64,000 nucleotides of DNA from an uncultured Gemmatimonadales bacterium (GCA_963701965.1 OY969695.1:4224001-4288000), one strand, 5' to 3'; shown: positions 2,038 to 63,951, counted from the first letter of the stretch. The notes: generated by a model from the sequence alone, not told the origin. A program made the numbers and translations.

Positions 2038-2616
2038 ATGGACTCCGAGTTCGAGTCACTTTTGCGGTGCGTCGATGGCGCGCAACCAGGTGCGGCGGAC
2101 AGGTTGTTCGCCATCTGCTACGCCGAGCTACACCGCCTCGCCGAGCACAATCTGTGGCGCTCCGGATCGACGGTCACCCTGGGGCCGACCACGCTGCTCC
2201 ACGAGGCGTACCTCAACATCGTCGGCCGCGCCGATGTCGCCTTTGCGGACCGACCCCGTTTTCTCAACTACGCCTCCCGGGCGATGCGTGGCCTGATCAT
2301 CGACTACGCCCGCCGCCGGCGCACGAGGAAGTGCGGACGGCAGTTCGAGATCACGCTGGCGACCGACGAGGAGCTCCCCGCTCATCCCGACCACGGCGCG
2401 GAGGATTTGGTCCGCCTCGGAGAAGCGCTCGACGAGTTGTCCACATTGGAGCCGGCGCTGGCGCAACTCGTCGACCTCCACTTCTTCTGTGGTTTCTCGT
2501 TCACCGAAATCGCCACCATGCGGCACGTCTCGGATCGCACCGTCCAGCGGGATTGGCGGAAGGCGCGACTACTGTTGCACCAGGCCTTGCTCGATGAGGA
2601 AAGCCCCGGGGGCTAG
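2038..2616 (+). CDS. ECF sigma factor, Ser/Thr kinase-associated type (TIGR02999/ECF43-like)
   Basis: YAELHRLA, TLGPTTLLHEAYL, ASRAMRGLIIDYARRR, VSDRTVQRDWRKAR. Confidence 0.9.
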   Translation: MDSEFESLLRCVDGAQPGAADRLFAICYAELHRLAEHNLWRSGSTVTLGPTTLLHEAYLNIVGRADVAFADRPRFLNYASRAMRGLIIDYARRRRTRKCGRQFEITLATDEELPAHPDHGAEDLVRLGEALDELSTLEPALAQLVDLHFFCGFSFTEIATMRHVSDRTVQRDWRKARLLLHQALLDEESPGG

Positions 2617-5216
2617 CGTGCCGTCGCGCCGAGGCGCGCCAGCCGCTCCTCGGCTTGCCGCAGGCGAGGGTGCGCCGCGCCGGCGCCAAACCGGAGCGCC
2701 GCGACGGCATGGGTCAGCGCGGCGCGCGCCGCGAGCGTGTCGCCGACGGCCAGTCGGGTGCGCGCCTCGAGCAGGTCGGCTTCGCCCGCGTATGCGCTGC
2801 GCGAGTCGGTCAGCGAATCCACGGACGCCACGGCTCGCGCGGCGCGTATGAAGCCGAGCGCGTCGGCCGTGTCCGACGGCGGCGTAGTTTCCGCGGCCAG
2901 GATGAGGGCCGAGCGAAAGACGCGCCGTTTCTTGCCATCGAAGTAGCCGTGCGATCTCAGCACGTCGACCACCCGCTCGTGTGCGGTGGCGCTGTCGCCG
3001 GACGCCAAAGCCATCCACGCGTCGAGAAAGCGATCGTCGACCACCTGATCGTCCGTGCTCCTGAGCGCGGGATTGCTGACCAACGGACGGAACCGGGTCA
3101 TCGTCCCGCGCGCCAGATCCCTGGCGCCACCACGGATCTGCGCCTGGGCGAGGCCGAACAGGGCCCGTCCTTGCCAGTATGCGTTGTGGGTCTGAGCCGC
3201 CTGACCCGCCAGGACCGCGAAGTACTTCGCCGCGGAATCGAAGTGCGCATTGAACAAAGCCGTGTGCGCATAATGAATGAGTGCCTGCTCCGGCAGGTGG
3301 CCGGCTGGATCGCTCCGTGTCGTCCGTTCGATCACGTCGTGCAAGAGGCGCTCGGCTTCCGCGGTCTCGCCCAGGCGAACGTACGTGACCGCCATGTCGT
3401 GCTCGATGATGCCGCGCGTCAGCGTTTCGCCACGGCCCGTCGAGTCCATCAGCGCGCCCGCCCGTCGATACAACGCGATCGCGTCGCGCGGGTGCCCATC
3501 GAGATCGAGTGACGTGGCCAAGGTCGACAGAAGCCCCACGAACGTCAGGTCCGTCGTGTCCGCCGACATCTGACGTATCGCGACCGCTCGCCGGGCGGCG
3601 TCGACGGCGCGGTGGGGATCGCCGGCCTCGGCTTCCAGGTCGGAGAGCGACTGCAGGCAGGTTGCTTCAACCGGCGCATCCGGCGCCGCGTGAAGGATCG
3701 CATCGGCCGCGCGCAGCGTCCGCCGCGCCTCGTCGTACCGCCCCACGCCCCGGAGGGCGGACGCCTGATGGCAACGGATCTCGGCCAGATCCGGATAGCC
3801 GCCGGCGACCGCGATCGACTCGGCGCGCGCGAGGAGCGTGTGTTGCGTCGTGTTGTCGCCCAGATCGCCGTACTGCGCGGACAGCTGGACGAGCAGGGCC
3901 GCGACCAGGCGCGAGTCGCCGACGTATTGACCTTCGAGCGCGACGCGGCTCCGATCGAGGATTTCGCGCATCGTGAGCGGCCGGTCGCCCAGCTCGGACA
4001 TGAGGAGCGACTGAAATTCGATGAGCGCGTTGGCGCGCCGGGTCGCGAATATCGCCGCATCGCGCTCGCGCTGTGCGGTATGCATCTGCGCCACCGAAAA
4101 CACCGTCGCCGCCAGGAGCGCGGCGCCGATGCCAGTCGCCAAGGCGACACCGGCGCGGTGGCGGCGAACAAACTTGCCCATCCGGTACGCGATCGAGTCG
4201 GGACGTGCGCCGACCGGTTCGTGGGCCAGATACCGGCGCAGGTCGTCGGCGAAAGCCTCCACCGTCTGATACCGTTCGCTCGGGTCCTGTCGCAGAGCCT
4301 TGAGGAGCACCGTGTCGAGATCGCCAAGGTCGAGCGATGGCGGTGCGGTGTCGCGTGGGGGAAGTCGGCCGGCGAGCAGCGCATGCAGCAGCAGGCCGAG
4401 CGCGTAGACATCCGTTGCCGTGGTAATGGCGTCGCCGTGCAGCTGCTCGGGCGCCGCGAATTGCGGCGTCAAGGGGCCGGATCCCTCGCGCGTGAGGGCC
4501 CCCATATCGCTCGCCGGGTCGGCGTCGATCAGCTTGGCGATGCCGAAGTCCAGCAGTTTCACGACGCCGTCAGGCGTGACCAGGATGTTCGACGGCTTGA
4601 GGTCGCGGTGGACGATGAGGTGCGCGTGCGCGTGTCCGACCGCGTCGAGGACCTGGAGCAGGAGGCCAATGCGGCCGTCCGACGACACCGCGTGAGTCGT
4701 GGCGAACGTGTCGATGCGTTCGCCGTCAATGTGCTCCAGGACGAGATACGGCTGCCCGCTCGGACTGACGCCGGCATCGAGGAGCCGCGCGATACCCGGG
4801 TGCGCCAGGCGGGCGAGCAGTGAGCCTTCGCGCCGGAACCGCGCTTGCCCGGCGGCACTGGACAGGGCCACGTTCAGGAGCTTGACGGCCGCGAATCCCT
4901 CGAATTGGCCGTCGGTGCGCCGCGCGAGCCAGACGGACCCCATCCCGCCTTGGCCGAGGAGTCGTTCGAGGGTGTAGGGTCCGAGTTGGACGCCGGCGAA
5001 TGATCCGTCCAGCGTCGGTGTGAACGGCTCGGCCAGAAACCCGCGTCGGTCGGCCGCCTCCTCACCGGACAGGAGCGACGTCAGCTCCTCCGCGACGGCC
5101 GGGGTGCGCTGGCGCAGGTCAGCGAGCCATGAGGCGCGCTCGTCGGGTGTCAGCTCCAGCGCGCGGTCCAGCAGCGGTTCGAGTACGCGCCACCGGTCGC
5201 GATCCATGATGGCCAT
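2613..5216 (-). CDS. Membrane Ser/Thr protein kinase with C-terminal TPR-like repeats
   Basis: GQGGMG, AVKLL, HRDLKPSN, DFG, APE motifs; TM segment; helical repeats. Confidence 0.92.
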   Translation of the reverse strand: MAIMDRDRWRVLEPLLDRALELTPDERASWLADLRQRTPAVAEELTSLLSGEEAADRRGFLAEPFTPTLDGSFAGVQLGPYTLERLLGQGGMGSVWLARRTDGQFEGFAAVKLLNVALSSAAGQARFRREGSLLARLAHPGIARLLDAGVSPSGQPYLVLEHIDGERIDTFATTHAVSSDGRIGLLLQVLDAVGHAHAHLIVHRDLKPSNILVTPDGVVKLLDFGIAKLIDADPASDMGALTREGSGPLTPQFAAPEQLHGDAITTATDVYALGLLLHALLAGRLPPRDTAPPSLDLGDLDTVLLKALRQDPSERYQTVEAFADDLRRYLAHEPVGARPDSIAYRMGKFVRRHRAGVALATGIGAALLAATVFSVAQMHTAQRERDAAIFATRRANALIEFQSLLMSELGDRPLTMREILDRSRVALEGQYVGDSRLVAALLVQLSAQYGDLGDNTTQHTLLARAESIAVAGGYPDLAEIRCHQASALRGVGRYDEARRTLRAADAILHAAPDAPVEATCLQSLSDLEAEAGDPHRAVDAARRAVAIRQMSADTTDLTFVGLLSTLATSLDLDGHPRDAIALYRRAGALMDSTGRGETLTRGIIEHDMAVTYVRLGETAEAERLLHDVIERTTRSDPAGHLPEQALIHYAHTALFNAHFDSAAKYFAVLAGQAAQTHNAYWQGRALFGLAQAQIRGGARDLARGTMTRFRPLVSNPALRSTDDQVVDDRFLDAWMALASGDSATAHERVVDVLRSHGYFDGKKRRVFRSALILAAETTPPSDTADALGFIRAARAVASVDSLTDSRSAYAGEADLLEARTRLAVGDTLAARAALTHAVAALRFGAGAAHPRLRQAEERLARLGATAR

Positions 5217-5359
5217 GGACGGATCTCCCAAAGGACCGTACACGATACTCGGCCGGTCGGCGCGGTGCCAGCCGATCGGCCCACATAACGCGTGTCGGGT
5301 TTGCCCGCTGGATTTCGATCTCCTATGCGAGGGCCATTCCCGGCATAAGGAGCGCACGC

Positions 5360-11443: not shown

Positions 11444-11857
11444 TCATTCGACGAACCGACGGACCTCGACATGCCCTCCGTACTTCCAATGCGGACACGT
11501 CGCCGCCACTCGATCGGCATCGGCGTCGCTCGGGGCCCGAACGATGAACATGCCCGTGATCTCGCCGGGCCCGATCAATCGTCCCCCCCGATCGACTCCC
11601 ACGCTATCGGCCCACCGTGCATACTCGTGGATCCGCTCCTCCATATGGCCCGGCGGTGGCAGGCGATACGTGGAGTCCTGGTGCAGGAGGAAGACGTAGG
11701 GACTGCCTTTCTGCGCCGACCAGTTGTGGACGAAGAGCAGCACGAGCGCGGCGGCGAGGGGGGCCAACAGCCACATCGCCGATCGTCGCCGAGGCCGGAT
11801 TTCGCCAGCTTGGATCAAGGCCCGCACCACGCGGTCCTCGAGAGGGACGTGTGTCAT
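11444..11857 (-). CDS. Putative anti-sigma factor: TM helix plus YCII-like domain
   Basis: Overlaps the sigma stop codon; TM helix; ITGMFIVRA..A..VAATCPHWKYGGHVEVR. Confidence 0.7.
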   Translation of the reverse strand: MTHVPLEDRVVRALIQAGEIRPRRRSAMWLLAPLAAALVLLFVHNWSAQKGSPYVFLLHQDSTYRLPPPGHMEERIHEYARWADSVGVDRGGRLIGPGEITGMFIVRAPSDADADRVAATCPHWKYGGHVEVRRFVE

Positions 11858-12387
11858 GGTAGCAATCCCCGGAGCAGGCTCCGAGCGCGGTTGAGTTGGC
11901 TTTTTGATGTCCCGACGACAATGCCCAGCATGCCGGCGATCTCTTCGTGAGTGTAACCGTGGACGTCGTGCAGGACGAAGATGTCGCGCGCACCCTCCGG
12001 TAATCCGGCGATGGCGCGTTCGAGATCCAACGCGTCATCGGTGACGACGCCGTTGGGCGCGATCGCGTCGTCTACGGGTGCTTCCACGATGCGCCACGCC
12101 GTGCGAATACGTTCGCGCCGCACGTTGACCAGAAAGCCGCAGAGCCACGAGCGCAGCGTCGATTCGGCGCGGAACGTGGAGAGCGCCCGAACCGCCCGCA
12201 GCCAACTCTCCTGAACCAGATCCTCGGCTTCGCCGGCGTCGCCACCCGCGAGGCGAAGCGCCAGCGCATACAGCGCTGGCGTATGGATGCGATACAGCGA
12301 TCGAAACGCGTCCTCGCCGCGCGACCGTAAGAACTGCCGGACGAGCGCGAGGTCGTCGTTCACCGGGCGGGCGTGGGGTCGATCCAA
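11854..12387 (-). CDS. ECF RNA polymerase sigma-70 factor (copy 1)
   Basis: EAEDLVQESW, LRSWL, FVLHDVHGYTHEEIAGMLGIVVGTSKSQLNRAR. Confidence 0.92.
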   Translation of the reverse strand: MDRPHARPVNDDLALVRQFLRSRGEDAFRSLYRIHTPALYALALRLAGGDAGEAEDLVQESWLRAVRALSTFRAESTLRSWLCGFLVNVRRERIRTAWRIVEAPVDDAIAPNGVVTDDALDLERAIAGLPEGARDIFVLHDVHGYTHEEIAGMLGIVVGTSKSQLNRARSLLRGLLP

Positions 12388-12959
12388 TCGCGAGCGACAA
12401 TGACGAGCGCCGAGCTCGGCGTCGCTGGATCGAGCACCATGGGGATGCTACCGTCGGACGATGGCACCAGTCCCATGTCCGCGGTGCGCATGCCCGGGTA
12501 GAAGACCATGACGTGCGGCAGCCACTTGCCGATCACGGTCCCATCGGGATTGGGCAACCGCTGGGCGGACGACAACATGAACACGAGCGCCGGGCGCGAA
12601 GGCGTCCGGAAGCGACCGGCGGCCCTCCCGTCCGCTATGGCGCGGGCGATGTCGGCATTCGAGCGGCCCGCCAGACGCTGCTCGACCCGAAAGCGCTCCA
12701 CGGCCAGGATGGTGGTATCGGCCTCGGCGTCACCGCACTCCGGTTCCAGTGACGTCTCCACGCTCCGAATGACCATGCACGCCTCGCCGGAATGACCGGG
12801 CTCGGCGACGACATAGTGGTTGTCGGCGAGCACATAGATCCGGGCGTCCTTCGCAACCGCCGGCGGCGCCGCGCTTCGGGCGAGCCGGATTTCGTCATTG
12901 CGCGACTGGGCCGCGGCGATGACGGGAACCAATAGGGCTACTGATAGAAGTATACGCAT
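12360..12959 (-). CDS. Secreted hypothetical protein (SAAP / C..C / PHxM family, paralog A)
   Basis: Signal peptide; EIRLARSAAP, ACMVIRS, PECGD, LVFMLS, WLPHVMVFYP. Confidence 0.75.
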   Translation of the reverse strand: MRILLSVALLVPVIAAAQSRNDEIRLARSAAPPAVAKDARIYVLADNHYVVAEPGHSGEACMVIRSVETSLEPECGDAEADTTILAVERFRVEQRLAGRSNADIARAIADGRAAGRFRTPSRPALVFMLSSAQRLPNPDGTVIGKWLPHVMVFYPGMRTADMGLVPSSDGSIPMVLDPATPSSALVIVARDWIDPTPAR

Positions 12960-12966
12960 ATCCATG

Positions 12967-12992
12967 AGTGAAGGAAGCGGCACTTAAGGTTG
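12967..12992 (-). promoter_or_regulatory. Putative ECF promoter A, CAACCTT-N13-TTCACT
   Basis: One of three copies; ends 7 nt before the ATG at 12959. Confidence 0.65.
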
Positions 12993-13010
12993 TAGGGCCT
13001 ACGAGTCGTG

Positions 13011-13553
13011 TCACGGCAGCGATTCCCGAAGTAGGCGCCGGGCGCGGTTGAGTTGGCTTTTGGATGTCCCGACGACGATGCCGAGCATTTCGGCGATCTC
13101 CTCATGGGTGTATCCCTCGACGTCATGCAGGACGAAGACGTCGCGCGTTCCCTCGGGTAACCCGGCGATAGCGCGCTCGAGATCCGGCGCGTCGCCGGTG
13201 ACCCCGTGGAGCACGATCGGTTCGTCCGCGGGCCTCTCCACGGTCCGCCACGCCGTCCTCAGTCGCTCGCGCCGCACGCTGACCACAAAACGGGTGAGCC
13301 ACGAGTGCAGAGTCGATTCGGCGTGGAACGTGGAGAGCACGCGAACGGCGCTCAGCCAACTCTCCTGGACCAAGACCTCCGCCTCGCCCGCGTCGCCATC
13401 GGCCAGACGAAGCGCCAGCGCGTAGAGCGCTGGCGTGTGGATGCGATAGAGCGACCGAAAGGCGTCCTCTCCGCGGGAGCGTAAGAAGTGCTGGACGAGC
13501 GCGAGATCGTCGCTCCCACTGACGCGGGCCGGGTGCGGTTGTGGTGTAGGCAC
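13011..13553 (-). CDS. ECF RNA polymerase sigma-70 factor (copy 2, near-duplicate of copy 1)
   Basis: Long identical stretches with copy 1, e.g. FLRSRGEDAFRSLYRIHTPALYALALRL; probable GTG start at 13553. Confidence 0.9.
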   Translation of the reverse strand: MPTPQPHPARVSGSDDLALVQHFLRSRGEDAFRSLYRIHTPALYALALRLADGDAGEAEVLVQESWLSAVRVLSTFHAESTLHSWLTRFVVSVRRERLRTAWRTVERPADEPIVLHGVTGDAPDLERAIAGLPEGTRDVFVLHDVEGYTHEEIAEMLGIVVGTSKSQLNRARRLLRESLP

Positions 13554-13560
13554 ATACGTT

Positions 13561-13586
13561 AGTGAAGGAACCGGCCCAAAAGGTTG
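13561..13586 (-). promoter_or_regulatory. Putative ECF promoter B, CAACCTT-N13-TTCACT
   Basis: Ends 7 nt before the GTG at 13553. Confidence 0.65.
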
Positions 13587-13647
13587 GAAGGCCCGCCGGC
13601 GGAGGCGGTGCATGGCGGGGGACCGCCCCTGACGTCAACGACTCCTC

Positions 13648-50379: not shown

Positions 50380-52274
50380 CGTGGCGCGTCGTGGGCTGGG
50401 CGATGCGCCACGCGCTGGCGGACGAGTTCCCGGTCGCCGCGCTCACAATGGTGCTGGCGCAGCGCCAGCCGGCCCCGGGGGTGCTGCACCATTCCGATCG
50501 CGGCAGTCAGCCCGGATTCAACTGGTCGTCGCAACAGTGGCTGAATGTGTGGAACGTAGGAGCTGATCCAGCGCCTGGGCTGGTGTTCTCCAACCGAGGG
50601 TCTTCCGAGGCCTGGTGTTGAGGTTGAGGGCCACGGCTTCCACGTCGGTCGCGCTGTGCAGGCTCAGGTCCGTGCCCTTCGGAAAGTACTGTCGCAACAA
50701 GCCGTTGGTGTTCTCGTTCGTGCCGCGCTGCCGCGGACTGTGGGGGTCGCAGAAGTAGACGCGCAGGCCGGCGTCAATGCGCAGGCGGGCGTGCTGCGAC
50801 ATCTCCGCCCCTTGATCCCACGTCAGCGAGCGTCGGAGCTGCTCGGGTAAGGTGGCGATCGTGCGCGTGATCGCGTCGCAGACCGCCTCGGCGCCATGCC
50901 CGGCGAGGGCAGGCCCGTTCTTCTCGCGAGCGCCGAGGCCATGGCCCGCCATAGGCGGCAGGTGCAGCAAGAGCGTGAACCGCGTCGTGCGCTCCACCAA
51001 GGTGCCGATCGCCGAACTGCCCACGCCCAGGATCAGGTCGCCCTCCCAATGGCCCGGCACCGCGCGGTCGGCCGCCTCCGGCGGGCGCGCGCTGATCATG
51101 AGCTCCGGCGTGACAAAGGCCTTGCCCTGCCCGCGGCTGCGCGCCCGCGGCACGCGCAGCGCCCGCCCCGTCCGCAGGCACGCGGTCAACTCACGGCGCC
51201 GGGCGCCCCGGCCCTGCACGTACAGCGCCTGGTAGATGGCCTCGTGGCTGATGTGCATGGAGGGGTCCGTGGGAAGTCGAGTCGCAGGCGATGGCAATTT
51301 GTTCCGGACTCCACGCCGACGCCCACCGCCGGTGCTGCCGGGGCCCGTGCCGACGCCCCTTCCACGCCACGACGGGACCGGGGACGGCGGCGCCGTCAGG
51401 CGCGACGACCACACCGGCCAGACGGTCTTCCACATACGCGCGGAGCGCCGCATGGACCGCCAGTCGGGGCGACCTTGGACGACGAGCGGCTCGGTCGGCG
51501 TACCACTGCGCCGTCGTGGCCCGATAGGCGAACCCACGGCCACGCGTCGCGGCATTCCGTCGCACCTCGCGCGAGATCGTCGACGGCGCGCGTGTCAAGC
51601 GACGGGCGATCTCGCGCACGCCGTGCCCGTGCGTGCGCAGGATCGCCAGTTCCTCGCGCTCCGCGATCGATAGGTACCGCCCGGACCGGGGTGGCAATGA
51701 CGGCGCAAGGTGTGATGGGGGCATCCCGCCAGTCTCCCGGAACCATCGTCTGCCCACAGCGGGCGACACTCCGACGGCGATCGCGGCGTCATCACTGGAG
51801 CACCCCACTGCGATCGCGACCCAGAATCGTCGCCGCTCGTCCCGTTGTGCCACCGAGGGCCGGCCCGGTGAGCGCAACACGACGACTCGCCCGGCTCGAC
51901 CTGAAGACCGCTGTCTTTTCGTCGACATCGCAACCCCTCTGCTAGGTGTTGCGACGACCGATTGAATCCACCCAGTACGCCGGGCACACCTATCGGGCGC
52001 AACTCGCGGCGCATGGGATGGTGTGCAGTGTGAGCAAACAAGGAGACTGCTACGACAACGCGGTCGTCGAGTCGTTCTTCGTCCAGGTTGAAGGTCGAGC
52101 TGGGGCGGGCGCCGACGCGGCGCGGGCGGCGGTGTTCGAGTAGGTGGATGTCTGGTACAATCGACGGCGCCTGCACTCGTCGTTGGGCTATTGACACCCA
52201 TAGCGTATGAACTGATGCAAGCGACAAAGATCAAAGCAGCTTAACTCACCTGTCCACGAATTGGGTCAGGTCCA
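50380..52274 (+). mobile_element. IS3-family remnant (integrase core and right end) split by IS30
   Basis: RVVGWAM..LHHSDRGSQ | YAG..GDCYDNAVVESFF..WYNRRRLHSSLGY; ends TGTCCACGAATTGGGTCAGGTCCA. Confidence 0.85.
50511..51972 (-). mobile_element. IS30-family insertion sequence; transposase 50518-51928 frameshifted
   Basis: IRs GGATTCAACTGGTCGTCGCAACA / TGTTGCGACGACCGATTGAATCC, CAG on both flanks; WSPEQI, SHEAIY, GHWEGDL, TWDQGAEM, QRGTNENTNGLLRQYFPKG. Confidence 0.92.
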
Positions 52275-54115: not shown

Positions 54116-54180
54116 GAGGCTGTGGCCTTCGCGGGAGTCCCTTCAACTGATTGGCGCGCTCCCTTCTGGATGGACGTATC

Positions 54181-54420
54181 ATGGGCAAATTGGGACCCGA
54201 AGAGATCATTCTCATTCTTTTGGTCGTCTTGCTGCTCTTTGGGGCCAAACGAATCCCCGAGATCGGCGCCTCGCTGGGTAAAGGCATCCGGGAATTCAAG
54301 GGAAGCCTGTCCGGAAAGGACGCGCATGTATCGGGGAGCTCACCCGCGGACGCCGCAGACCGGGACGCATTGGAGACAAGAGAGGAGGACGAGAAAGTGA
54401 AGCCACGTCGCTTGCTCTGA
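54181..54420 (+). CDS. tatA: Twin-arginine translocase TatA/E subunit
   Basis: LGPEEIILILLVVLLLFGAKRIPEIGASLGKGIREFK. Confidence 0.93.
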   Translation: MGKLGPEEIILILLVVLLLFGAKRIPEIGASLGKGIREFKGSLSGKDAHVSGSSPADAADRDALETREEDEKVKPRRLL

Positions 54421-54524
54421 GTCACCGGGTCAGCCCACCAGGCGTGTCGCGAACCGCAGCAGCTCCTTAACGGTCACAATCGCCAGCACGAGCGGCCGAG
54501 CCCGAGCGTTGCTGTAGAAGGCGA

Positions 54525-55190
54525 ATGGGCCAGCGTCGAACGGGTCACCAGGGACGGGCCCGCATCCTTACATTAGCGATTCTCACGATCGCGACCGATC
54601 CAACGCACGTCATTGCGATCGTCGCGTTGTTTGTGTCGCTGGGCCTTGACACGCTGGCCGTGGCGCTGAGTTTGGGTATCGCCGGTGTACCGCGGAGCCA
54701 GTGGCTCCGGGTGGGACTCACGTTCGCCATTTGCGAAGGCATCACCCCTGTGATCGGGATTCTGCTCGGCCGGGCCATGAGCGCGGCCCTCGGTTCCGCC
54801 GCCGGTGCAGTCGGGGGGCTGATCGTGATCGGCGTGGGTCTGCGGTCGCTGTTCGAGGAACGGGACCCTGAGCCGTCGGCGGACGCCTCGGCGCGCCTCC
54901 GCACGCGGGTGGCCTCGATGCGGACGTTGATCCCCATGGGTCTCGGCGTCAGCCTGGACGAGCTGGCGGTCGGGTTTTCCCTCGGGGCCGTGCGTGCATG
55001 GCTACCGATCGCCGTCGCCGGCGTCGCTTTGCAAGCGGCGGTGCTGACGTTCGTCGGATTACTCGTCGGTCAGAAGCTCGGGACGCGGCTCGCCGAGCGT
55101 GCCGACCGAGTCGCAGGCCTATTGCTGATCGCGGTGGGCGTCGCGCTGTTGTGGGGGGGCGTGACGGACGTTCTCGGGCGTGCGAGGTGA
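54525..55190 (+). CDS. mntP: Manganese efflux pump MntP family
   Basis: SLGLDTLAVALSLG, VSLDELAVGFSLG, six TM segments. Confidence 0.82.
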   Translation: MGQRRTGHQGRARILTLAILTIATDPTHVIAIVALFVSLGLDTLAVALSLGIAGVPRSQWLRVGLTFAICEGITPVIGILLGRAMSAALGSAAGAVGGLIVIGVGLRSLFEERDPEPSADASARLRTRVASMRTLIPMGLGVSLDELAVGFSLGAVRAWLPIAVAGVALQAAVLTFVGLLVGQKLGTRLAERADRVAGLLLIAVGVALLWGGVTDVLGRAR

Positions 55191-55372
55191 GGACCGGTGC
55201 GGCACGTGACCCTTGGTTCGTCGCCTTGCTCGCCATCCGGCGCAGCGGCGCGCGGTGCGTCGTGTCGAGAACCGCCGGCGTGAGAGACGGCCCGGGGGAC
55301 CGTCCTGGAAGGGTCTCGCCTCGAGGCAACGCTTCGCATTAGAAGAATGAGCCGTGTGAGGCAGCCGCCGTG

Positions 55373-58165
55373 TTACTCCCGTCCATTTGTCGTGGCGGTT
55401 AGCGCCGCGACGCGCTGGCGCGCGTGGACGACGTCGGGCTGCAGCACGATGTCCGCCGTGTCCCAGAGGTCGGCGAGATGGCGGTAGGCGGCGACCGCGC
55501 GGGCGGTGTCGGCGCGCTGCTCGTACAGCGCGCCGAGCCGTGCGTATGCCGTGCCGTGAAACTCCCCGTCGGTGCCCTCCCACTCCGACCACGGCTCGGA
55601 CGCGTATCGCTCATAGGCGATGATGGCGGAGTCACCGGCGCCGGTCAGCTCATACGCGCGACCGAGGTCGGGTGTCGCGCACACCGGGCAGTTGTAGAGA
55701 TCGTCCGCGTGCCGCAGCGTCGCCCGCGCTGCCTGGAAGCGGCCTTCCGCCAGCTCGACGACGCCGAGCGCGCGGAAATATCCCCCATCGACCGCCGCTC
55801 CCTGCGTCCCGCTGAACCCCGAGAGCAAATCGACGGTACGCAGCTCCTGCAGCACGGCGCGCGACTGGGTGTTGCGACCAGCGAGCGCGTACGCGTACGC
55901 CAGAAACTGGTACGGTCGATCGAGTGGCGACATGCGCTCAAACGGATACCGCGCCAACGCATCATCGATCGTCCGCAGGCCGCGCTCCTGGGCGTGCCGA
56001 TACCAGATGTCGATGAAGCCGAGGAAGATCGACCAGTTGACGTACGCACTCCCCGACCCCTGCGCCGCATAGAGATCCAGCATGGCGTGGACCGAGCGCT
56101 CGGCGTCGGTCAGGTGGCCGCGCCGCACGTCGAGCGACGCCATCATGGCCAGCGCCGCGGCCCGCCGGTCCACGTCCGGCCCGGCGCGGGCCACCGCCGT
56201 GTCGATGCCGCGCCGGGCGAGCGGCCAGTTGCCGCGCGCCACGGCGAGCGCGATGCGGATGTGCTGCGCATCCTCCTGGGGCGGAAACCGCTGATCACGG
56301 TACATCAGGGTCGCTGCCGCCGCGTCGAGCGCGCCGGCATTGAGCTGCGCGGTCGCGAGATGGTTGTAGAGTAGCGATACGGACGAGTCGACCGCCAACG
56401 CCAGGTCGTAGTAGCGCCCCGCCTCGCGGTAGTTCTTGAGCCACATGTTGGCCGCGCCGATGTTGGCGAGCGCCCGCATGTCACCCGGGTACCGGTCGAG
56501 CAGCGCACGGTACACGGCGATCGCCTCGGTCGGCTGGCGGATGGTGAGATAGTAGCTGCCCATCGTGTGGTAGCGTTCCCGCGCCGGGAGCCGGTCGCGA
56601 TCGCGAAACGCCCGTTGCATGGCGTCGTGCTCCAGCGCCGCCTCATTGTACTCGCCGTAGTAGGTGCCAAGCTTGCGGTAGGCCATTGAGAAGTGCGGGT
56701 CGAGCGCGACCGCTTCTCGCAGAATGCCAATGGCGCGCCGCTCGTCGCCCTGCACATCACCGACGCGGATCGCCTGCGAGTACTTGCGCAGCGCTTCCAG
56801 TGATCCGGTGGTCACCTGCTCGAGCGGCAACGTCGCGCGCACACTCCACATCGACTCGCCAATACGGCGGCGGAGTCGGCTCGAGACCGCGTCGACGGCG
56901 CGCAGGAGCGCGGTCGAGTCGGTCGCGGCCTCGCGAACGGCCGCAATGATGTCGCCGGTTTCGACGGACACCAGGCGTGCCGAGACCGTGTACGCGGCGC
57001 CGAGCGTGGCGATGTCACCCTCGACGAATGCCTTGATGCCGTCGCGCTCGGCCACTTCCCGGGCGACGACGTCGGTGACGCGGTCGCCGGTGGGGCGCTC
57101 CATGCGCATCAGCACAGCCTGGATCTGCTGGCGCGTCAGTACGTGCAGGCGAGGTGATTGCGCCAAGTCGACGCTCAGGGCCTCGGTCACCGCGTCGCCG
57201 ATCAGTGAGTCGCGGGTCTGGTTGCGAAAATCGGCGACGATGAGGCGGTCGGAGGGGTCGAGCACCGCCCGACGCCATGGCGCGAACACGCCCGCGATGA
57301 TGGCGGTGACGAGTACCGCCAGTGCCGCCAGCGCCGCGCCAGCCCGCCGCCTCGGCCGGCGCGCCGGTATGGGCGCGGCCATCGGCGGCGGTGTGGCCTC
57401 CGCCGGGGATCCGTCGCCAGTCCGGGCCACGACATCGCCGGCGGGCGCGGCGCGCAGTTGCTCGGCGAGCTTGGTCGTCTCGGCTGCCGGCTCGGCGTCG
57501 AGCTCGTCCGCCATATGGCGCGCGAAGCGCTCGTACGCCCGCAGTGCCGGCGTCCGATCCCCGGCGTGATCGAGCACCCGCATCAGCTGCCGCAGCGCCG
57601 CCTCGTCTTCGGGCGCCACCCGACACGCGAGATCGGCCCACCGTGCCGCGTCCGCGAGATCGCCGGTGGCCAGCGAGCCCACGGCCAACGCGCCGGCCGC
57701 CGCGACCGCGCGCCCGCGGAGCGCGCGGCGAACACCGTCGACCCACTGGTCGAACTCCGGTGCCGCATCGGCAACAAACACCGCTTGGAAAAAATCCCCG
57801 TCGTAGAGCGCCAGCGCCTCCGCCGGGCGGCCCGCATTGAGCGCCTGCTCGAACGCGACGACGTCGCACCACAGCCCGCCATCGACGAGCCCGACGCGAT
57901 CGTCCGGCGACGCGACGAGTGCGGATTCCCCCAGCCACCGCCGCAGCGCGTGCAATGCCTGCCGCAACGCGCGCCGTCCTTCATCGGCGTCCAGCTCCGG
58001 CCAGAACATCGCCAGCAGCGCATCCCGCCGCTGCAATCCTCGCGGCGTGGCGATCGCCAGATATGCGAGGACGGCCAGTCGCTTCGGCTGCGTCGGCACG
58101 AGACGCGCGGCTGGCGCATCGCCGGCGACCAGCTCGACTCGACCCAAGGTTTGGAAGCGCAGCAT
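55373..58165 (-). CDS. Transmembrane SARP/BTAD transcriptional regulator with periplasmic TolB-N-like and TPR domains
   Basis: FQTLGRVEL, PKRLAVLAYL, RDALLAMFWPE, LRQAL, CDVVAFE, LYDGDFF; TM segment; VADFRNQT; TPRs. Confidence 0.88.
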   Translation of the reverse strand: MLRFQTLGRVELVAGDAPAARLVPTQPKRLAVLAYLAIATPRGLQRRDALLAMFWPELDADEGRRALRQALHALRRWLGESALVASPDDRVGLVDGGLWCDVVAFEQALNAGRPAEALALYDGDFFQAVFVADAAPEFDQWVDGVRRALRGRAVAAAGALAVGSLATGDLADAARWADLACRVAPEDEAALRQLMRVLDHAGDRTPALRAYERFARHMADELDAEPAAETTKLAEQLRAAPAGDVVARTGDGSPAEATPPPMAAPIPARRPRRRAGAALAALAVLVTAIIAGVFAPWRRAVLDPSDRLIVADFRNQTRDSLIGDAVTEALSVDLAQSPRLHVLTRQQIQAVLMRMERPTGDRVTDVVAREVAERDGIKAFVEGDIATLGAAYTVSARLVSVETGDIIAAVREAATDSTALLRAVDAVSSRLRRRIGESMWSVRATLPLEQVTTGSLEALRKYSQAIRVGDVQGDERRAIGILREAVALDPHFSMAYRKLGTYYGEYNEAALEHDAMQRAFRDRDRLPARERYHTMGSYYLTIRQPTEAIAVYRALLDRYPGDMRALANIGAANMWLKNYREAGRYYDLALAVDSSVSLLYNHLATAQLNAGALDAAAATLMYRDQRFPPQEDAQHIRIALAVARGNWPLARRGIDTAVARAGPDVDRRAAALAMMASLDVRRGHLTDAERSVHAMLDLYAAQGSGSAYVNWSIFLGFIDIWYRHAQERGLRTIDDALARYPFERMSPLDRPYQFLAYAYALAGRNTQSRAVLQELRTVDLLSGFSGTQGAAVDGGYFRALGVVELAEGRFQAARATLRHADDLYNCPVCATPDLGRAYELTGAGDSAIIAYERYASEPWSEWEGTDGEFHGTAYARLGALYEQRADTARAVAAYRHLADLWDTADIVLQPDVVHARQRVAALTATTNGRE

Positions 58166-58241
58166 GAACTCCGCCAGCGAGGCGCGGCCGCGACGACGCC
58201 GTGGCCGGCCCCTGAACCTACGGCCGCGGCACCTCCGCCGT

Positions 58242-59345
58242 CTACTGCCGCGTCAGCTCGACGCGCCGGTTGCGCGCGCGCCCCTCCAGCGTCGCGTTCG
58301 TCGCTTTGGGCGCCGACGCCCCCGACCCGCCGGTGTCGAGCCGCCCGACGGCCACGCCACGCGCGACCAGCGCCGCCTTGACCGCCTCAGCGCGCCGGCG
58401 CGACAGCGTAAGATTCGACGCGTCGCCGCCGATATTGTCGGTGTGTCCGGTCACCGTCAGTGTCCACGACGGCTCGCGGCGCATGATGCCGGCGATCGCA
58501 CCCAGCATCGAGTCCGATTGCGGGCGAATCGTGGCACTGTTGAATCCGAAGTAGATACCATAGACGTCAACCGGCCGGCGCGCCGCCAGCGCCGATTCCA
58601 TGTCGCGCGACGTGCTCGTGTTCGGCCATTCGATCTTGATCACCGTCATGGAGTCAGGTCCGACCCGCATCTTCAACACGACTGGGTTCGCGGCATCGTC
58701 GAGCACGTACAGGTCCGCGTTCCGCACTCCGTCGTCGGAGGAGAGGCGGCCGCTGAGATGCCGGGTCGGCAGAGCGACGAGGGCCCCGTTGACGACGACC
58801 GACAGCGGCACCGCCGTCCGTTCGACGAGCGTCATCGTGCCCGTCGCCGTAAACCCCCCGCCACCCAGCCAATCGGCTGCCGAGCCTGAGCCGGCAATGT
58901 CGCCGACAAGCCCCTTGACCATCCCGCCCAATCCCGACCCGTCATCGATAACCGTGAGCGACGTATGCCCCTTGGCCCGGAGCTCCGCCATGGCGCTCGT
59001 CGACAACTGGAACGACGTTGTTCCCGGATACACTTCGTCACCGGCCGTGCTGATTCGCACCTTCATGGTTCGTGCGTCCCGGAGATCGATGGCGCGCACG
59101 GTGCGGCTGGCCCGCAACTGCTTCGATGCCGCACCGTCGGCGCCCGGCAGCTCGGCGTTGACCGTGAACGAGAGGCCATCGGCGGATATCCGGTCGACGG
59201 TGTGCATCGACTCGTAGTCGCCCTGCGACTCGTGCACGGCCAACACCATGGTCAGCCCCGCGACGAGCGGCACGGCCGGGTGCGGAGGCTGCCCGATCGC
59301 CGAACCGGGTCCCAGCAGGGCAAGGCCCACTATGTATGCGCGCAT
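58242..59345 (-). CDS. OmpA-family peptidoglycan-binding secreted protein
   Basis: GIYFGFNSATI, GHTDNIG, NLTLSRRRAEAV, GRARNRRVEL. Confidence 0.9.
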   Translation of the reverse strand: MRAYIVGLALLGPGSAIGQPPHPAVPLVAGLTMVLAVHESQGDYESMHTVDRISADGLSFTVNAELPGADGAASKQLRASRTVRAIDLRDARTMKVRISTAGDEVYPGTTSFQLSTSAMAELRAKGHTSLTVIDDGSGLGGMVKGLVGDIAGSGSAADWLGGGGFTATGTMTLVERTAVPLSVVVNGALVALPTRHLSGRLSSDDGVRNADLYVLDDAANPVVLKMRVGPDSMTVIKIEWPNTSTSRDMESALAARRPVDVYGIYFGFNSATIRPQSDSMLGAIAGIMRREPSWTLTVTGHTDNIGGDASNLTLSRRRAEAVKAALVARGVAVGRLDTGGSGASAPKATNATLEGRARNRRVELTRQ

Positions 59346-59350
59346 GTCGG

Positions 59351-59941
59351 CTACAGCTTGGCCAGGACGACGCGCGCGACCGCCTTCTCGTGCTCGACAA
59401 CGTCGTGTCCGACCGTACTGTCCTGGATCATCCGCATTGGCTCGGCGTACATGAGGATGCGGATCGTATTGTCGCCGGTGCGGACAGTGAGCGTCCCCAT
59501 GGAAAAGAACGCCTCATTGCCGAGGCCGGAAACGTCGCGACTTTGAAAACCGGGGAGCGAGGCACCGGCCGAGAGGCCGGCGGTCTTGTTCTCGAATCCC
59601 TGTCGCGCCACCTTGATGGGAATCCGCGCCATGGTCGCGCGTGTCGCCGGGTCGGTCGCGTCCTCCTCCGACAGCCACGACAGCTCGACGACGAGCGGAA
59701 CGGCGTCCTTCGACGTGGCGTAGTGGCAGCTCGACGACGTCGAACGGGGGTCGTCGTCCGATGTGGCGACGGTGTACGGTTCGCCTGTTACGGCCTGCAT
59801 CTCCTCTTTGGTGACCATTGAACAGAGCGCATAGTGGTGGCCGGACTGTGGCGCGCGCGCGTCAGCGGCGCGGGGAGCGGCCGTCCGGCTGGTGCACGCG
59901 GCGACGCCGATGGCGATCGCCAGACTCAAGCGCGGCGTCAT
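59351..59941 (-). CDS. Hypothetical lipoprotein
   Basis: Lipobox GVAAC; CSMVTKEEMQAVTG, SCHY, VSGLGNEAF. Confidence 0.75.
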   Translation of the reverse strand: MTPRLSLAIAIGVAACTSRTAAPRAADARAPQSGHHYALCSMVTKEEMQAVTGEPYTVATSDDDPRSTSSSCHYATSKDAVPLVVELSWLSEEDATDPATRATMARIPIKVARQGFENKTAGLSAGASLPGFQSRDVSGLGNEAFFSMGTLTVRTGDNTIRILMYAEPMRMIQDSTVGHDVVEHEKAVARVVLAKL

Positions 59942-61623
59942 GAGCAACTCGGATTGCACGCGTGAACCTTGAGCATGTAGATCCCCTTGTTGTTGTCACC
60001 CGGTCGGGTGCGGTTGAACGTGTGATCGATGACCATCGTGTTGCGTGTCACGGTGACGGGCAGCTCGGCCGGTTTGTTCTCCACGGCGCGGCCGAGGATG
60101 AAGGCGGCGGTCTGAAACGGCAGGTCGTACTTGACGACGATCGGAGCCAGGATCATCGGGCCGATGAGCACGTAGACCACGTGCGCCGCGATCTGGTCGC
60201 TCAGGTCACTCTGCGCCGCCAGGAATCGCAGCGTCAGCTTGTCGCCGCCGGTGATGTCCCCTTCGACCGGCACGATGAACCCGAATGGCGACGTTCCCGC
60301 GAACGTCTTCCCTTCCGTTTCGTTGTAGCCCTGGCCTGGCGGCACGACCAGCTTGCGCAGCATGGTGCTGGTCTTGCCCGTCACCGGATACAGCACGGCC
60401 AGCGCATCTTCCGTGACCGCGAAGTGATTGGCCGTTCCGACGAATTCGCCCGTCACGTGGGTCGCGGACAGGGATGAACCTTTGGCGTAGCGCAGGATCA
60501 GCTTGCCGCCGATCGCCACGTCGTACGACCACCAGGTATGGCCGTCGCGGTAATACTCGGCGTGCATCGTGCCCGACATCGGACCTTCGATCTTCTCGCA
60601 GTACTTCTCGAACTCCTGGCCCTTGGCGAACGCGCCGAGGTCGGCGGCGAGCGCCACGACGGCGACCGGCCACGCTTCGGGGCCGAGCATGATGTTGCTC
60701 GTGAACTTGAACGTCTCGTTGAGCGCGAAGGCGTAGCGCGAGTCGTTCTGCAACGATGCCGGCGTCAGCTTCTGCCGGAATGCGTCGGCGCCGTAATCGA
60801 TGCCGAACGCCTTGACGACGCTCTTGATGCCATCGGACACGAAGTTCATGCCCGCGGAGAACAGCTTGAGCTGCTCGATCGCCTGGTCGAGGCGGTCGCA
60901 GGTCACGCCCGCCGCGGCGCTCCGACTCCGTTGGCTCTCGATCTCGGCCGACTTCGCGTGGGCGCCGTTGGCCACCTCGGCGACCTTGGCGAATATTGGT
61001 TGGAAGTTCTGGGCGGCGGCGGGGAACCGTGTCGGAACCGAGCCCATCTTCGTGATGGCCGCCTTGAGCGCATCCCGCTGTGCGGGCCACTCTTTGACGC
61101 GCCGCTGCGCCGCGGCGAGACTGTCCTGATAACGCATCTTGGCCGGCGATGCCGGAAGGGCGGCGACGAGATCGACGGCCGCGGCCAGAGCCTTGGACGA
61201 CGCGGTGACGACACTGTCAAGTGCTTTCGCCGTCTCGTCGGGGACCTCCGGCGTATCGTAGAGGGTGAGAATCGCGGAGTCAGCGCCCTTCTGGTCGGGC
61301 GCGGTGACGCGGACGCGGTAGCGGCCCCATTCGAACGGATGGTTGATGGTCGCGGTGAAGTTGCCGGCGTTGTCCATCGTCGCCGTCGCCGAGACCTCGC
61401 TGCCCGGCTTGGGGGCCGGGTAGATACGGCTGACGGTGATGGCGACCGTGTGGACATCGCCGTATGGAACGGACGTGCCGGTGACCGTGAACGCCATGCC
61501 CGAGAAGGCGTACGCCGGAGTGACCTTGACGGTCACGGGGAGCGCAGCCGAGGAGCCTTCCTGTGCGCCGGCGCGTGACATGGCGCAGACGGCGGCGCCG
61601 ATGAGGAGCGTTCGCGCGATCAT
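59938..61623 (-). CDS. Large secreted hypothetical protein
   Basis: Signal peptide; beta-rich N-terminus, helical middle, beta-rich C-terminus ending CNPSCS; coupled to both neighbours. Confidence 0.8.
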   Translation of the reverse strand: MIARTLLIGAAVCAMSRAGAQEGSSAALPVTVKVTPAYAFSGMAFTVTGTSVPYGDVHTVAITVSRIYPAPKPGSEVSATATMDNAGNFTATINHPFEWGRYRVRVTAPDQKGADSAILTLYDTPEVPDETAKALDSVVTASSKALAAAVDLVAALPASPAKMRYQDSLAAAQRRVKEWPAQRDALKAAITKMGSVPTRFPAAAQNFQPIFAKVAEVANGAHAKSAEIESQRSRSAAAGVTCDRLDQAIEQLKLFSAGMNFVSDGIKSVVKAFGIDYGADAFRQKLTPASLQNDSRYAFALNETFKFTSNIMLGPEAWPVAVVALAADLGAFAKGQEFEKYCEKIEGPMSGTMHAEYYRDGHTWWSYDVAIGGKLILRYAKGSSLSATHVTGEFVGTANHFAVTEDALAVLYPVTGKTSTMLRKLVVPPGQGYNETEGKTFAGTSPFGFIVPVEGDITGGDKLTLRFLAAQSDLSDQIAAHVVYVLIGPMILAPIVVKYDLPFQTAAFILGRAVENKPAELPVTVTRNTMVIDHTFNRTRPGDNNKGIYMLKVHACNPSCS

Positions 61624-62615
61624 GGGTGCAGCAGGTGGTGCACGACCGACTTGGCCTTCTCCTTGGCCTCGTCTTTGGCCTGCCCGGTGACACCATCACT
61701 GACGCTTTGCGCGACCGAGGGCGTCGGAGGAGCTGCCTCACCCGCCTTCTTGAGCGAGTCGCCAAGCTTGCCGAGGCTCGACATTTGGCCAAACAGGTCG
61801 TTCTTCGTGTAGCCCGCGGGCAGCTCGAACACCGACGCACTGACGGCGCCCGTGGTGAGGTGCGCGAGGGTCATCGTCATGTCGGACCTTGTCGTCTTGC
61901 CATTATCGACGGTCTCGCTGTGCGTGACCGTCTTGAGCGGTGCGCCCTTCGGCAGCTTCGCGTACGCCGCAGTGAGCGCGTCGGTATATGCCGAGTTGGC
62001 ACCGCTGTGACTGCCGGTGAGACTCCGGCCCATCGGATTGATCGCGGCGCTCAGCTTGGGCGCGATCCAGATGTCGGTCGTCGACCGGGTGATGGACTGT
62101 GACCGGCGACCCATGATCGTCATGGTCATAGTCGCGTTGTCGACGACGTGGTACTTGATCGTCGAGTAACCTTCGATTGCCTCGCCTGCACCGGCGATAT
62201 CGCCACTGGCACTCACGTCCGACCACTCGGTCGTGACGAGACCGTCGAGTGACGCCTGCAATCTCTCCGATACCTTGCTCATGGAGTCGGAGTTGAACTC
62301 CACGTACTCGCGCTTCGCCGGGTCCACGAAGTACGAGGTGTGTGTGGCGCCTTTGACGATGATATAGGTACCCGGGCCGAACAGCCCAGGGCGGGCCGGG
62401 CGTCCGGTTGGCGCGCCGACTTGCTGATAGTCGATCCGGGCGTTGCCATCGGCAAACTGGCCGTGAGCGGCCATCATAGGCCGGCTGACCGGCTGGCTGC
62501 TGCGCGGGTCGGTGTACGTGCCGGTCAGGGTCATGTCGTACGTCAGCCCCTGCGCCGACGCAATGCCGGACAGTACCGTGACCGCGATACACGCGGTCAC
62601 GACTCGAGTGGACAT
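61620..62615 (-). CDS. DUF4412-like secreted protein
   Basis: Signal peptide; ARIDY, YFVDPAKREY, GEAIEGYSTIKY, DIWIA, SVFELPAGY; RBS gagagg. Confidence 0.7.
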   Translation of the reverse strand: MSTRVVTACIAVTVLSGIASAQGLTYDMTLTGTYTDPRSSQPVSRPMMAAHGQFADGNARIDYQQVGAPTGRPARPGLFGPGTYIIVKGATHTSYFVDPAKREYVEFNSDSMSKVSERLQASLDGLVTTEWSDVSASGDIAGAGEAIEGYSTIKYHVVDNATMTMTIMGRRSQSITRSTTDIWIAPKLSAAINPMGRSLTGSHSGANSAYTDALTAAYAKLPKGAPLKTVTHSETVDNGKTTRSDMTMTLAHLTTGAVSASVFELPAGYTKNDLFGQMSSLGKLGDSLKKAGEAAPPTPSVAQSVSDGVTGQAKDEAKEKAKSVVHHLLHP

Positions 62616-62664
62616 GTGCGTGCCTCTCCGTCTGTTGAGTGACGGTCGAGGGTAATGAGCACAT

Positions 62665-62704
62665 GTTACCGGCGTGCGGCGGCGCCGTTACCCGGTCCGG
62701 TAAC
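62665..62704 (-). promoter_or_regulatory. GGTAAC direct repeats 22 bp apart plus an inverted copy (candidate SARP/BTAD site)
   Basis: GTTACC at 62665 and 62687, GGTAAC at 62699. Confidence 0.5.
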
Positions 62705-63236: not shown

Positions 63237-63304
63237 GTCCGAAATATGCATCGTTCTTCGGACATTCTCTTGGTTTGTCTGAAAAATGTAGTATATTTCG
63301 GACA
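63237..63304. promoter_or_regulatory. Two inverted-repeat operators upstream of the AbiEi-like gene
   Basis: GTCCGAA-N13-TTCGGAC and TGTCTGAAA-N11-TTTCGGACA. Confidence 0.7.
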
Positions 63305-63951
63305 TGACCGCACATGGTCGCGATACCGATCTCCGCAGCCGCGTGCTTAATCGGGTGCGGTCCGACGCCGGAGCGGTGTGGACGCCCAACGACTTCGCCG
63401 ATTTGGCGAACCGTGCGGCGGTCGACAAGACGCTTCAGCGCCTCGTGACTGCCGGCGAATTGCGTCGCATTGACCGCGGTCTGTATGATCGGCCGCGCCA
63501 AAGCGCCCTCACCGGCCAAACGACGGTACCAGACTACCGCGCAGTGATTCAGGCCGTCGTGCGGCGCGATCACGTGCGCGTGTTGATCGACGGCATGAGC
63601 GCGGCGAACGAGATCGGCCTGACGACCGCCGTGCCGGCTCACATCGAGGTGCTCGCCGATGCGCGTATCAAGCCGGTTCGCCTCGGATCCCAGGAAATCC
63701 GCTTCAAGGTCGCGGCCCCGAGTCGACTATACTGGGCGGGCCGACCCGCGATGCGCGTCGTCCAAGCGCTCTATTGGCTGCAGCACACGCTCGACGATCC
63801 CGACGAGCGCGTCCGCATCACGGAGCGGATTCGCCAGCTCCTCGTCGATCCGACGCACGGGCTCATCATTCGTGATGACCTCCGGGCCGGCCTCTCGGCG
63901 CTTCCGATCTGGATGCAGGAGTTCCTCCGCGACTTGATCAACGCCGCGTGA
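63304..63951 (+). CDS. DUF6088 / type IV TA AbiEi-like antitoxin
   Basis: VWTPNDFADL.NRAAVDKTLQRL, RRIDRGLY, AANEIGLTTAVPA. Confidence 0.85.
   Translation: MTAHGRDTDLRSRVLNRVRSDAGAVWTPNDFADLANRAAVDKTLQRLVTAGELRRIDRGLYDRPRQSALTGQTTVPDYRAVIQAVVRRDHVRVLIDGMSAANEIGLTTAVPAHIEVLADARIKPVRLGSQEIRFKVAAPSRLYWAGRPAMRVVQALYWLQHTLDDPDERVRITERIRQLLVDPTHGLIIRDDLRAGLSALPIWMQEFLRDLINAA

Follow-up and report, generated by a model that had tools for sequence, protein, structure and literature searches.

A membrane-spanning SARP-type regulator, its predicted operator and a four-slot envelope-gene cassette in Gemmatimonadota

What is a transmembrane SARP-type regulator doing at the end of a run of envelope genes in an uncultured Gemmatimonadales bacterium, and do those genes form a unit under its control? 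The locus lies in a 64,000-nt stretch of genome GCA_963701965.1 (OY969695.1:4224001-4288000), hereafter the window, over which positions are counted; the genome is a single contig of 5.1 Mb. A first-pass annotation had described the locus as an uncharacterised, mobile five-gene operon that regulates itself. All five minus-strand open reading frames, g1 to g5, are intact (55373-62615), and their junctions are as that annotation gave them, with ATGA overlaps at g1/g2 and g2/g3 and a gap of 5 nt at g3/g4; g4 and g5 are 76 nt apart. They encode, in order, P0001 (61620-62615), an exported DUF4412-like protein of 331 amino acids (aa); P0002 (59938-61623), an exported protein of 561 aa from an unnamed family, which occupies the slot of the large protein; P0003 (59351-59941), a DUF3558-like lipoprotein of 196 aa counted from ATG, with the lipobox VAAC; P0004 (58242-59345), 367 aa with an N-terminal head domain and an OmpA C-terminal domain; and P0005 (55373-58165), the regulator, of 930 aa. 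SARP activators are familiar from actinomycetes, where they control antibiotic clusters from the cytoplasm. In this case a SARP predicted to span the membrane appears in a barely studied soil phylum, and its predicted operator passed a blind test in other genomes. By its predicted domains the regulator is a new combination of known kinds, its operator is well supported, and the structural part of the locus matches no named system.

The predicted operator and its regulator

Two GGTAAC repeats 22 bp apart, already noted in the first-pass annotation, lie on the minus strand at 62692-62687 and 62670-62665, and we find a third, inverted copy, GTTACC, at 62704-62699. Together they form a predicted SARP operator on the minus strand, GTTAC-N8-GTAAC-N17-GTAAC (62665-62704), which combines an inverted pair with the 22-bp direct repeat. 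A predicted -10 element, TACCCT (62649-62654, minus strand), follows 10 nt past the last repeat, and a search of the operator region for a sigma-70-type -35/-10 pair found none. At SARP promoters, according to PMC10936776, repeats stand 11 or 22 bp apart and the last one precedes the -10 element by about 8 bp. The window operator conforms to this spacing, with its 22-bp repeat and a -10-like element at the rule distance (10 nt from the 5-mer core, 8 nt if the repeat is taken as a heptamer).

The arrangement GGTAAC-N16-GGTAAC occurs once in the 5.1-Mb genome. The longer box that contains it, GTTAC-N8-GTAAC-N17-RTAAC-N10-nAnnnT, is also single-copy here, and the same box lies between regulator and cassette at all four loci that have a divergent P0005 orthologue (L001, L002, L004 and L020). 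We searched blindly for the pattern in 401 genomes of the phylum, this one included. Six genomes matched, yielding six new sites in five of the 400 other genomes, and a reversed-pattern control gave none among the matches listed. All six new sites precede cassette genes, and they are independent of the derivation of the motif because their five genomes had no P0002 match. Two of them, at the near-identical sister loci L083 and L084, precede a Yip1-lipoprotein-DUF4412 set with a divergent SARP gene; the others precede DUF4412 with a SARP fragment (L085), lipoprotein-DUF4412 pairs (L087 and L088), and an unrelated lipoprotein, called X below, followed by the OmpA anchor (L089). At every one of 11 sites an nAnnnT element stands exactly 10 nt downstream of the last repeat. 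Full-length P0005 orthologues (E ≤ 1e-170) are present in 3 of the 401 genomes, each of which has the box, and in two further genomes the orthologue is cut by a contig end.

Sister SARP clades that adjoin the cassette have boxes of their own. L066 and L073 carry GGTGAC at 11 and 22 bp, N10 and CATCTT; L069, L071 and L067 carry AGCGAC or GGAGAC repeats, N10 and TAnnnT, the same geometry in other letters. The recognition-helix residues also vary between SARP clades (QALH, QTLY and NTLY). The blind-search result strongly supports SARP control of the cassette, and the repeats are supported as the operator of the P0005 clade. The 11/22-bp periodicity that had been proposed for them holds in the window and in the sister clades. 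In all likelihood P0005 activates the cassette promoter predicted at 62649-62704. The regulon of P0005, and by the same geometry those of the sister regulators, should be readable from sequence.

P0005 has a BTAD domain (PF03704) at residues 115-238 that scores 59.7 bits against a cut-off of 22.1. Its N-terminal region is conserved; the OmpR-type winged helix (PF00486) was not reported for P0005 and was found in one of 120 relatives (P0266). A hydrophobic helix at 277-295 (hydropathy 2.58) stands behind an Arg-rich run, and a comparable segment (hydropathy ≥ 1.7) occurs in 45 of the 49 closest relatives. It is followed by an FlgO-like region at 313-413 that falls below the Pfam cut-off, and TPRs are also present. 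The protein is predicted to pass the membrane once, with the N-terminal DNA-binding part in the cytoplasm and the FlgO-like/TPR part in the periplasm. Relatives of the latter part, about 40% identical, are fused to kinases. TIGR04510, a putative peptide-modification-system cyclase, matches P0005 across its TM-FlgO-TPR part (residues 273-693, E 5e-45) but falls far below cut-off (154 against 400), and no cyclase or precursor peptide was seen here.

The layout seen here, with the regulator behind the structural genes, is not general. The SARP gene is divergent from the structural genes in most orthologous loci, and the tail position of g5 in the window is therefore a local arrangement. The genome also has a second SARP-TM gene (G000:C1:1357589-1361508), orthologous to the cassette-adjoining SARPs of L067, L069 and L071 (49-54%, C-terminal part). 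GAC repeats with N10-TAGTCT precede it, and the next gene, broken over two frames, encodes a tandem DUF3558-like lipoprotein; neither P0002 nor the anchor is present beside the SARP gene.

Cassette composition across genomes

The synteny search that had been suggested for the locus started from 52 loci encoding the P0002 C-terminal domain, grouped into 29 clusters at 85% identity. Of these, 20 had at least 3 kb of flank on each side and nine, the window among them, were dropped for short flanks; neighbours were counted within 7 kb. In the underlying search of genome contigs, P0002 alone gave no match and an alignment of P0002 did. A DUF3558-like lipoprotein lies near the P0002 relative in 17 of the 20 dereplicated loci and the P0004 head (OmpA anchor) in 12; SARP genes are found in 5, ECF genes in 4, kinases in 4, DUF4412 in 3 and Yip1 in 1. 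P0002 loci span Gemmatimonadota, Acidobacteriota, Myxococcota and Pseudomonadota, with matches (E ≤ 0.001) in 13 of the 401 phylum genomes (10 strong ones including this genome, and three short and weak), in 4 of 251 genomes of an acidobacterial class and in 6 of 301 of a gammaproteobacterial order. The genes grouped as an operon in the first-pass annotation do co-occur elsewhere. A fixed five-gene operon is rejected, however: slots are lost, swapped and reordered among loci, and only some branches of the family have DUF4412 or SARP beside them. The locus is a four-slot cassette with an exchangeable large protein and sensor, because DUF4412 and SARP are rarely nearby and because the large protein and the sensor are replaced elsewhere.

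At other loci the slot of the large protein, beside the OmpA anchor, is filled by lipoprotein X (L092:3960-5525, L091:8274-9770, L107:5135-6565 and L108:7554-9038). X is beta-rich and about 500 aa long, has no Pfam match and shows no detectable relation to P0002; members turned up in 4 of 121 family genomes, as well as in G357 and in G989. In G357 an anchor-X-SARP run faces DUF4412-lipoprotein, and in G989, of the same genus, the order is anchor-lipoprotein-DUF4412-X; in G1008 an ECF/kinase pair lies opposite a run made up of a small exported protein, the anchor, the lipoprotein and X. At three loci, in G278, in G219 and at a second position in G111, X stands with neither anchor nor lipoprotein. 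Across phyla, the anchor gene usually directly adjoins the gene for the large protein, P0002 and X alike. As a side observation, the second G111 X gene has GTTAT/ATAAC repeats 11 bp apart with N10-TAGTCT upstream (L111:7560-7620), and a different SARP gene is convergent downstream of it.

Where DUF4412 is missing, its slot often holds DUF3617 or another small unnamed exported family. One such family, with no Pfam match and seemingly in this slot (L077:11470-12024, L078:5559-6170, L071:11556-12814 and L111:6900-7523), is common to Xanthomonadales and Gemmatimonadota loci. The sensor slot is taken by SARP-TM-TPR proteins, by ECF + kinase-TM-TPR pairs (flanking the cassette in L008, L015, L016, L064 and L108) or by CadC-type proteins (PF00486; L076 and L077), each with one predicted membrane helix, and several cassette loci have no sensor nearby. 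Gene order is shuffled among loci, with the g1-g4 arrangement of the window kept in its near relatives L018 and L019. Further genes join the set in places. A Yip1-domain membrane protein, absent from the window, comes first behind the operator in L001 (7587-8222), L002, L004, L094 and L095. Six Pseudomonadota loci (L012, L013, L017, L032, L033 and L008) all add a CsgG-like protein, and some of them an extra OmpA-C protein (L013, L017, L032 and L033) or an unnamed exported protein of 770-870 aa (L008, L012 and L032).

The exported proteins and what they may form

The domain calls of the first-pass annotation hold: OmpA and BTAD exceed their cut-offs, P0005 has the one hydrophobic helix, and the DUF4412 match, like a DUF3558 match in the lipoprotein, is weak and below threshold. 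P0001 scores 17.8 bits for DUF4412 (PF14371) against a cut-off of 21.6, and all 14 of its aligned homologues match the family, two of them above the cut-off (best E 3e-11); a LolA-like fold is presumed for DUF4412, and P0001 may act as a carrier. P0003 scores 24.7 bits for DUF3558 (PF12079) against 34.1; relatives in L011, L015, L016 and L030 reach 34.4-51.8, and tandem-domain relatives exceed the cut-off. The regulated genes give context to DUF4412 and to Gram-negative DUF3558-like lipoproteins. The OmpA C-terminal peptidoglycan-binding domain of P0004 (PF00691) at 265-360 scores 73.7 bits against 27.2, and matches to named OmpA-family equivalogs all fall below cut-off. The unnamed head of P0004 (about 20-245) shows no detectable relation to P0001 in a profile comparison (probability 0.3%), and a protein atlas returned for it only unnamed clusters below 0.85 and a Chlamydia CT021 cluster (0.81). 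PDB sequence searches with alignments of P0001, P0003 and the P0004 head gave nothing significant.

Together with the P0004 head, P0002 is one of two large unnamed families defined here, and comprises 492 clusters at 50% identity. It has no Pfam family over cut-off, no usable match in the protein atlas and no plasmid match. Its full model (predicted local distance difference test, pLDDT, 71.7) consists of an immunoglobulin (Ig) domain at 30-122, helices at 124-340 and a beta domain at 342-557. The Ig domain matches biofilm-adhesin repeats (6xi3; profile E 3.6e-20; Z 10.8, root-mean-square deviation (rmsd) 2.5, 94 aligned). The helical part resembles generic bundles only and includes a glycine-containing hairpin that is mildly hydrophobic (median best 19-residue hydropathy 1.13; ≥ 1.6 in 14 of 142). 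Folded alone, the C-terminal domain reaches pLDDT 95.8. Its scores are tied, both at Z below 8, between the OmpA-type membrane barrel 3nb3 (Z 7.5, rmsd 3.8, 116 aligned) and the soluble TbpB/NHBA-type barrel 4qq1 (Z 7.4, rmsd 4.0, 127 aligned). Unlike these barrels, it has about 100 extra residues that form a side sheet and helices, and P0002 is no lipoprotein. Foldseek returned low-TM matches only for the full model and the barrel. In an alignment of 140 sequences one face of the domain is conserved as hydrophobic or Gly, and the other is variable and charged; the relatives end mostly in an ACNPxC-type motif and have no C-terminal aromatic residue. This column pattern indicates a soluble barrel, predicted to be eight-stranded. 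An outer-membrane beta-barrel, for which a variable hydrophobic outer face, a conserved polar lumen and a C-terminal aromatic signal would be expected, was rejected on the strand-face pattern and the missing aromatic signal. Four cysteines, conserved in 142/142, 142/142, 120/141 and 120/126 sequences, probably form disulphides after export. Slam-exported TbpB-like surface lipoproteins carry a lipobox and end in a soluble barrel, and a Slam gene usually lies close by. P0002 as such a protein was rejected: a lipobox-like motif occurs in 4 of 142 family members, no Slam was seen among the scanned neighbours (88 plus 26 selected proteins), and the barrel match is at Z 7.4 only.

How might these parts work together? 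Our preferred reading, to which we would give a little less than an even chance, is that the membrane-spanning SARP switches the cassette on and that the products form a periplasmic module, tethered to peptidoglycan, which protects the envelope or reinforces it when required. P0005 would sit in the inner membrane, its periplasmic FlgO-like/TPR part binding a protein- or peptide-type cue. Its cytoplasmic SARP domain would then bind the GTAAC boxes overlying the -35 region, a step strongly supported by sequence, and recruit RNA polymerase to a promoter without a good -35 in the AfsR mode, as set out in PMC10936776. In this genome, read-through into g5 may add positive feedback. At the level of sequence the output is four exported proteins: the soluble DUF4412-like protein, the DUF3558-like lipoprotein, the OmpA-C anchor with its unnamed head and one large protein. 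The anchor head would hold the large protein (P0002 here, X elsewhere), the lipoprotein would link this protein to a membrane, and a hydrophobic ligand would be carried by the soluble protein. If the products do form a complex, it would represent an inducible envelope module of a new kind, one in which both subunits and sensors can be swapped.

That the products assemble physically seems to us a nearly balanced question, tilted slightly towards no. The anchor gene usually adjoins that of the large protein, and similarities among P0002 proteins correlate with those among P0004 heads (Mantel rho 0.62, 17 loci, 0 of 2000 permutations). Several observations weigh against the module. The correlation may come from shared descent alone, and P0002 and lipoprotein similarities are uncorrelated (rho 0.08, 23 loci, a value reached by 312 of 2000 permutations). 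P0002 occurs without lipoprotein or anchor in 3 of the 20 loci and without anchor in 8. Regulator, lipoprotein and DUF4412 occur in five genomes with no P0002 match, three of which also have no anchor-domain match; because P0002 and anchor are missing in such genomes, no subunit set is obligatory. The P0002 barrel found no structural match at Z ≥ 8, which is not proof of a new fold. Finally, an envelope-defence role, which we regard as possible but doubtful, is drawn by analogy from the PknS/EcfK anti-amoeba defence. The widest form of the idea would be a modular periplasmic machine in at least four phyla, consisting of an anchored adaptor, a lipoprotein, a carrier and an exchangeable large subunit behind each lineage's own single-pass TPR sensor, and induced by contact with a predator, a competitor or an envelope-damaging peptide; with its Gemmatimonadota version, an operator code of membrane-bound SARPs (recognition helix against GTAAC, GTGAC or GMGAC) would become readable for the first time. 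We consider it rather unlikely.

Two other explanations are both unlikely, and about equally so. The cassette could encode an inducible surface module for adhesion or cell contact, in which P0002 or X is exposed on the cell surface after delivery and anchoring by the other three proteins. The adhesin-like Ig domain, the resemblance of the barrel to those of TbpB/NHBA surface lipoproteins and the conserved cysteines are consistent with this. P0002 has only one Ig domain, however, and no C-terminal aromatic, and lipobox-like motifs are rare in its family; no outer-membrane translocon appeared among the scanned neighbours, OmpA-C anchors act in the periplasm, and the barrel scores are tied below 8. 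Equally improbable, in our estimate, is a set of co-regulated, physically independent exported ligand-binding proteins behind one promoter, with no complex. Shuffled order, with each slot lost or swapped somewhere, would follow naturally, as would the operator preceding two separate loci in G111 and the uncorrelated P0002 and lipoprotein similarities; yet anchor and large-protein genes usually adjoin across phyla, anchor similarity tracks P0002, and the genes are translationally coupled in the window.

Much less probable is co-component sensing, which is compatible with the tethered module: the lipoprotein, and the DUF4412 protein, would partner the periplasmic domain of P0005 in the manner of ToxS or VtrC, with P0002 and P0004 as passengers. 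Lipoprotein and DUF4412 do accompany P0005 orthologues in the absence of P0002, lipoprotein type goes with the clade of the sensor, single-domain forms accompanying the P0005 clade and tandem forms the sister SARP clades, and behind the second SARP of the genome there is only a tandem lipoprotein gene. But the lipoprotein flanks P0002 with no SARP nearby in L003, L005, L072, L074, L075 and L077, tandem lipoproteins accompany sensors with unrelated periplasmic parts, and P0003 looks DUF3558-like rather than lipocalin-like, the fold of the partners ToxS and VtrC. Most improbable of all is an exported effector, P0002, that attacks membranes and is neutralised or escorted by the lipoprotein. In its favour, genes for ESX-secreted substrates in M. 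abscessus have an excess of DUF3558 genes next to them (PMC13491425), ECF43/kinase pairs induce a type VI secretion system (T6SS) in Xanthomonas, and the helical bundle of P0002 includes a glycine-containing hairpin. Against it, this hairpin is no more than mildly hydrophobic, the C-terminus shows conservation and not polymorphism, the lipoprotein is often found where P0002 is absent and their similarities do not track each other, and structural comparisons gave no clear pore-forming match.

Known systems, descent and surroundings

AfsR and other large SARPs share with P0005 a BTAD in an N-terminal SARP-type region and C-terminal TPRs, and AfsR/SARP promoters share with the window repeats 22 bp apart (11 in sister clades) just upstream of the -10 element and no good -35. 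Unlike them, P0005 has no NOD/NB-ARC that we could find, and it adds one membrane helix and a predicted periplasmic FlgO-like/TPR part. Unlike in other SARP systems, the host is of the Gram-negative Gemmatimonadota type, envelope genes take the place of biosynthetic clusters as targets, and the box contains an inverted pair. ToxR, TcpP and CadC resemble P0005 in that one membrane helix joins a cytoplasmic DNA-binding part to a sensor, predicted to be periplasmic in P0005, and that a gene for an exported protein lies alongside, but P0005 adds the BTAD and a 630-aa FlgO-like/TPR sensor; in contrast to ToxRS and VtrAC, the adjoining gene for a putative partner is DUF3558-like here. The main text of a survey of transmembrane regulators (PMC10269533) contains none of the terms BTAD, SARP, TPR and Gemmatimonad; its supplements might list such proteins. 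The EcfK-PknS pair of Xanthomonas citri, an ECF43 sigma factor with a Hanks kinase, recalls the ECF + kinase-TM-TPR pairs that flank the same cassette elsewhere; in that system the periplasmic TPR kinase induces anti-amoeba defence (PMC13147305). It differs in that the window regulator has a direct DNA-binding output and that no T6SS genes were seen among the scanned neighbours. TraAB outer-membrane exchange was rejected: NF033763 (TraB) scores 58.5 against 700, in the OmpA-C part only, and no TraA was seen.

Domain, equivalog and profile searches matched no known system, in agreement with the earlier description of the locus as uncharacterised, and the view that none matches the cassette is supported. 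Full-text searches found no literature on DUF4412 or on SARP regulators in Gemmatimonadota, within a coverage that mostly excludes subscription journals. Among titles and abstract openings on transmembrane SARP/BTAD proteins or on DUF3617/Yip1/OmpA/CsgG sets, no description of this system was found.

The claim that the locus is mobile stands in part. Its spread is patchy, and two same-genus genomes (95% and 94% complete) have no DNA match to the operon, with the left flank present in one. In a tree of 30 C-terminal domains, Gemmatimonadota sequences fall into three supported groups with phyla mixed, and that of the window groups (98/98) with Acidobacteriota, Myxococcota and other Gemmatimonadota. 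Because this tree is unrooted and carries no clade test, we name no donor. Among named sequences, those nearest to P0002 and P0005 come for the most part from Gemmatimonadota, which would place the genome in that phylum. On the other side, no mobility gene is a member of the cassette, and its tetranucleotide composition is ordinary (73rd percentile), so composition does not point to a recent foreign origin.

The neighbours, which had been called decayed, are so only in part. A transposase with an rve domain, presumably IS30-like, is broken across two overlapping frames at 50518-52234 (minus strand), and an AbiEi-like DUF6088 gene at 63304-63951 (plus strand) has no adjacent AbiEii, the sole AbiEii match of the genome lying 6.6 kb from it at C1:4294561-4295211. 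The left-hand neighbours mntP and tatA, in contrast, appear intact. This stand-alone tatA and the MntP-type gene (54151-55190, plus strand) converge on the cassette end, and the neighbour scans showed no copy of either next to the cassette at other loci. No tRNA genes were found within the window. Directly 3' of g5 lies a weak terminator-like hairpin (55350-55366, minus strand), in a region with four such hairpins against 3.1 expected, which is chance level. Farther left in the window, open reading frame starts place an ECF-like gene next to a kinase-like region (2038-5357) and a duplicated pair of an ECF gene and its neighbour at 11444-13613.

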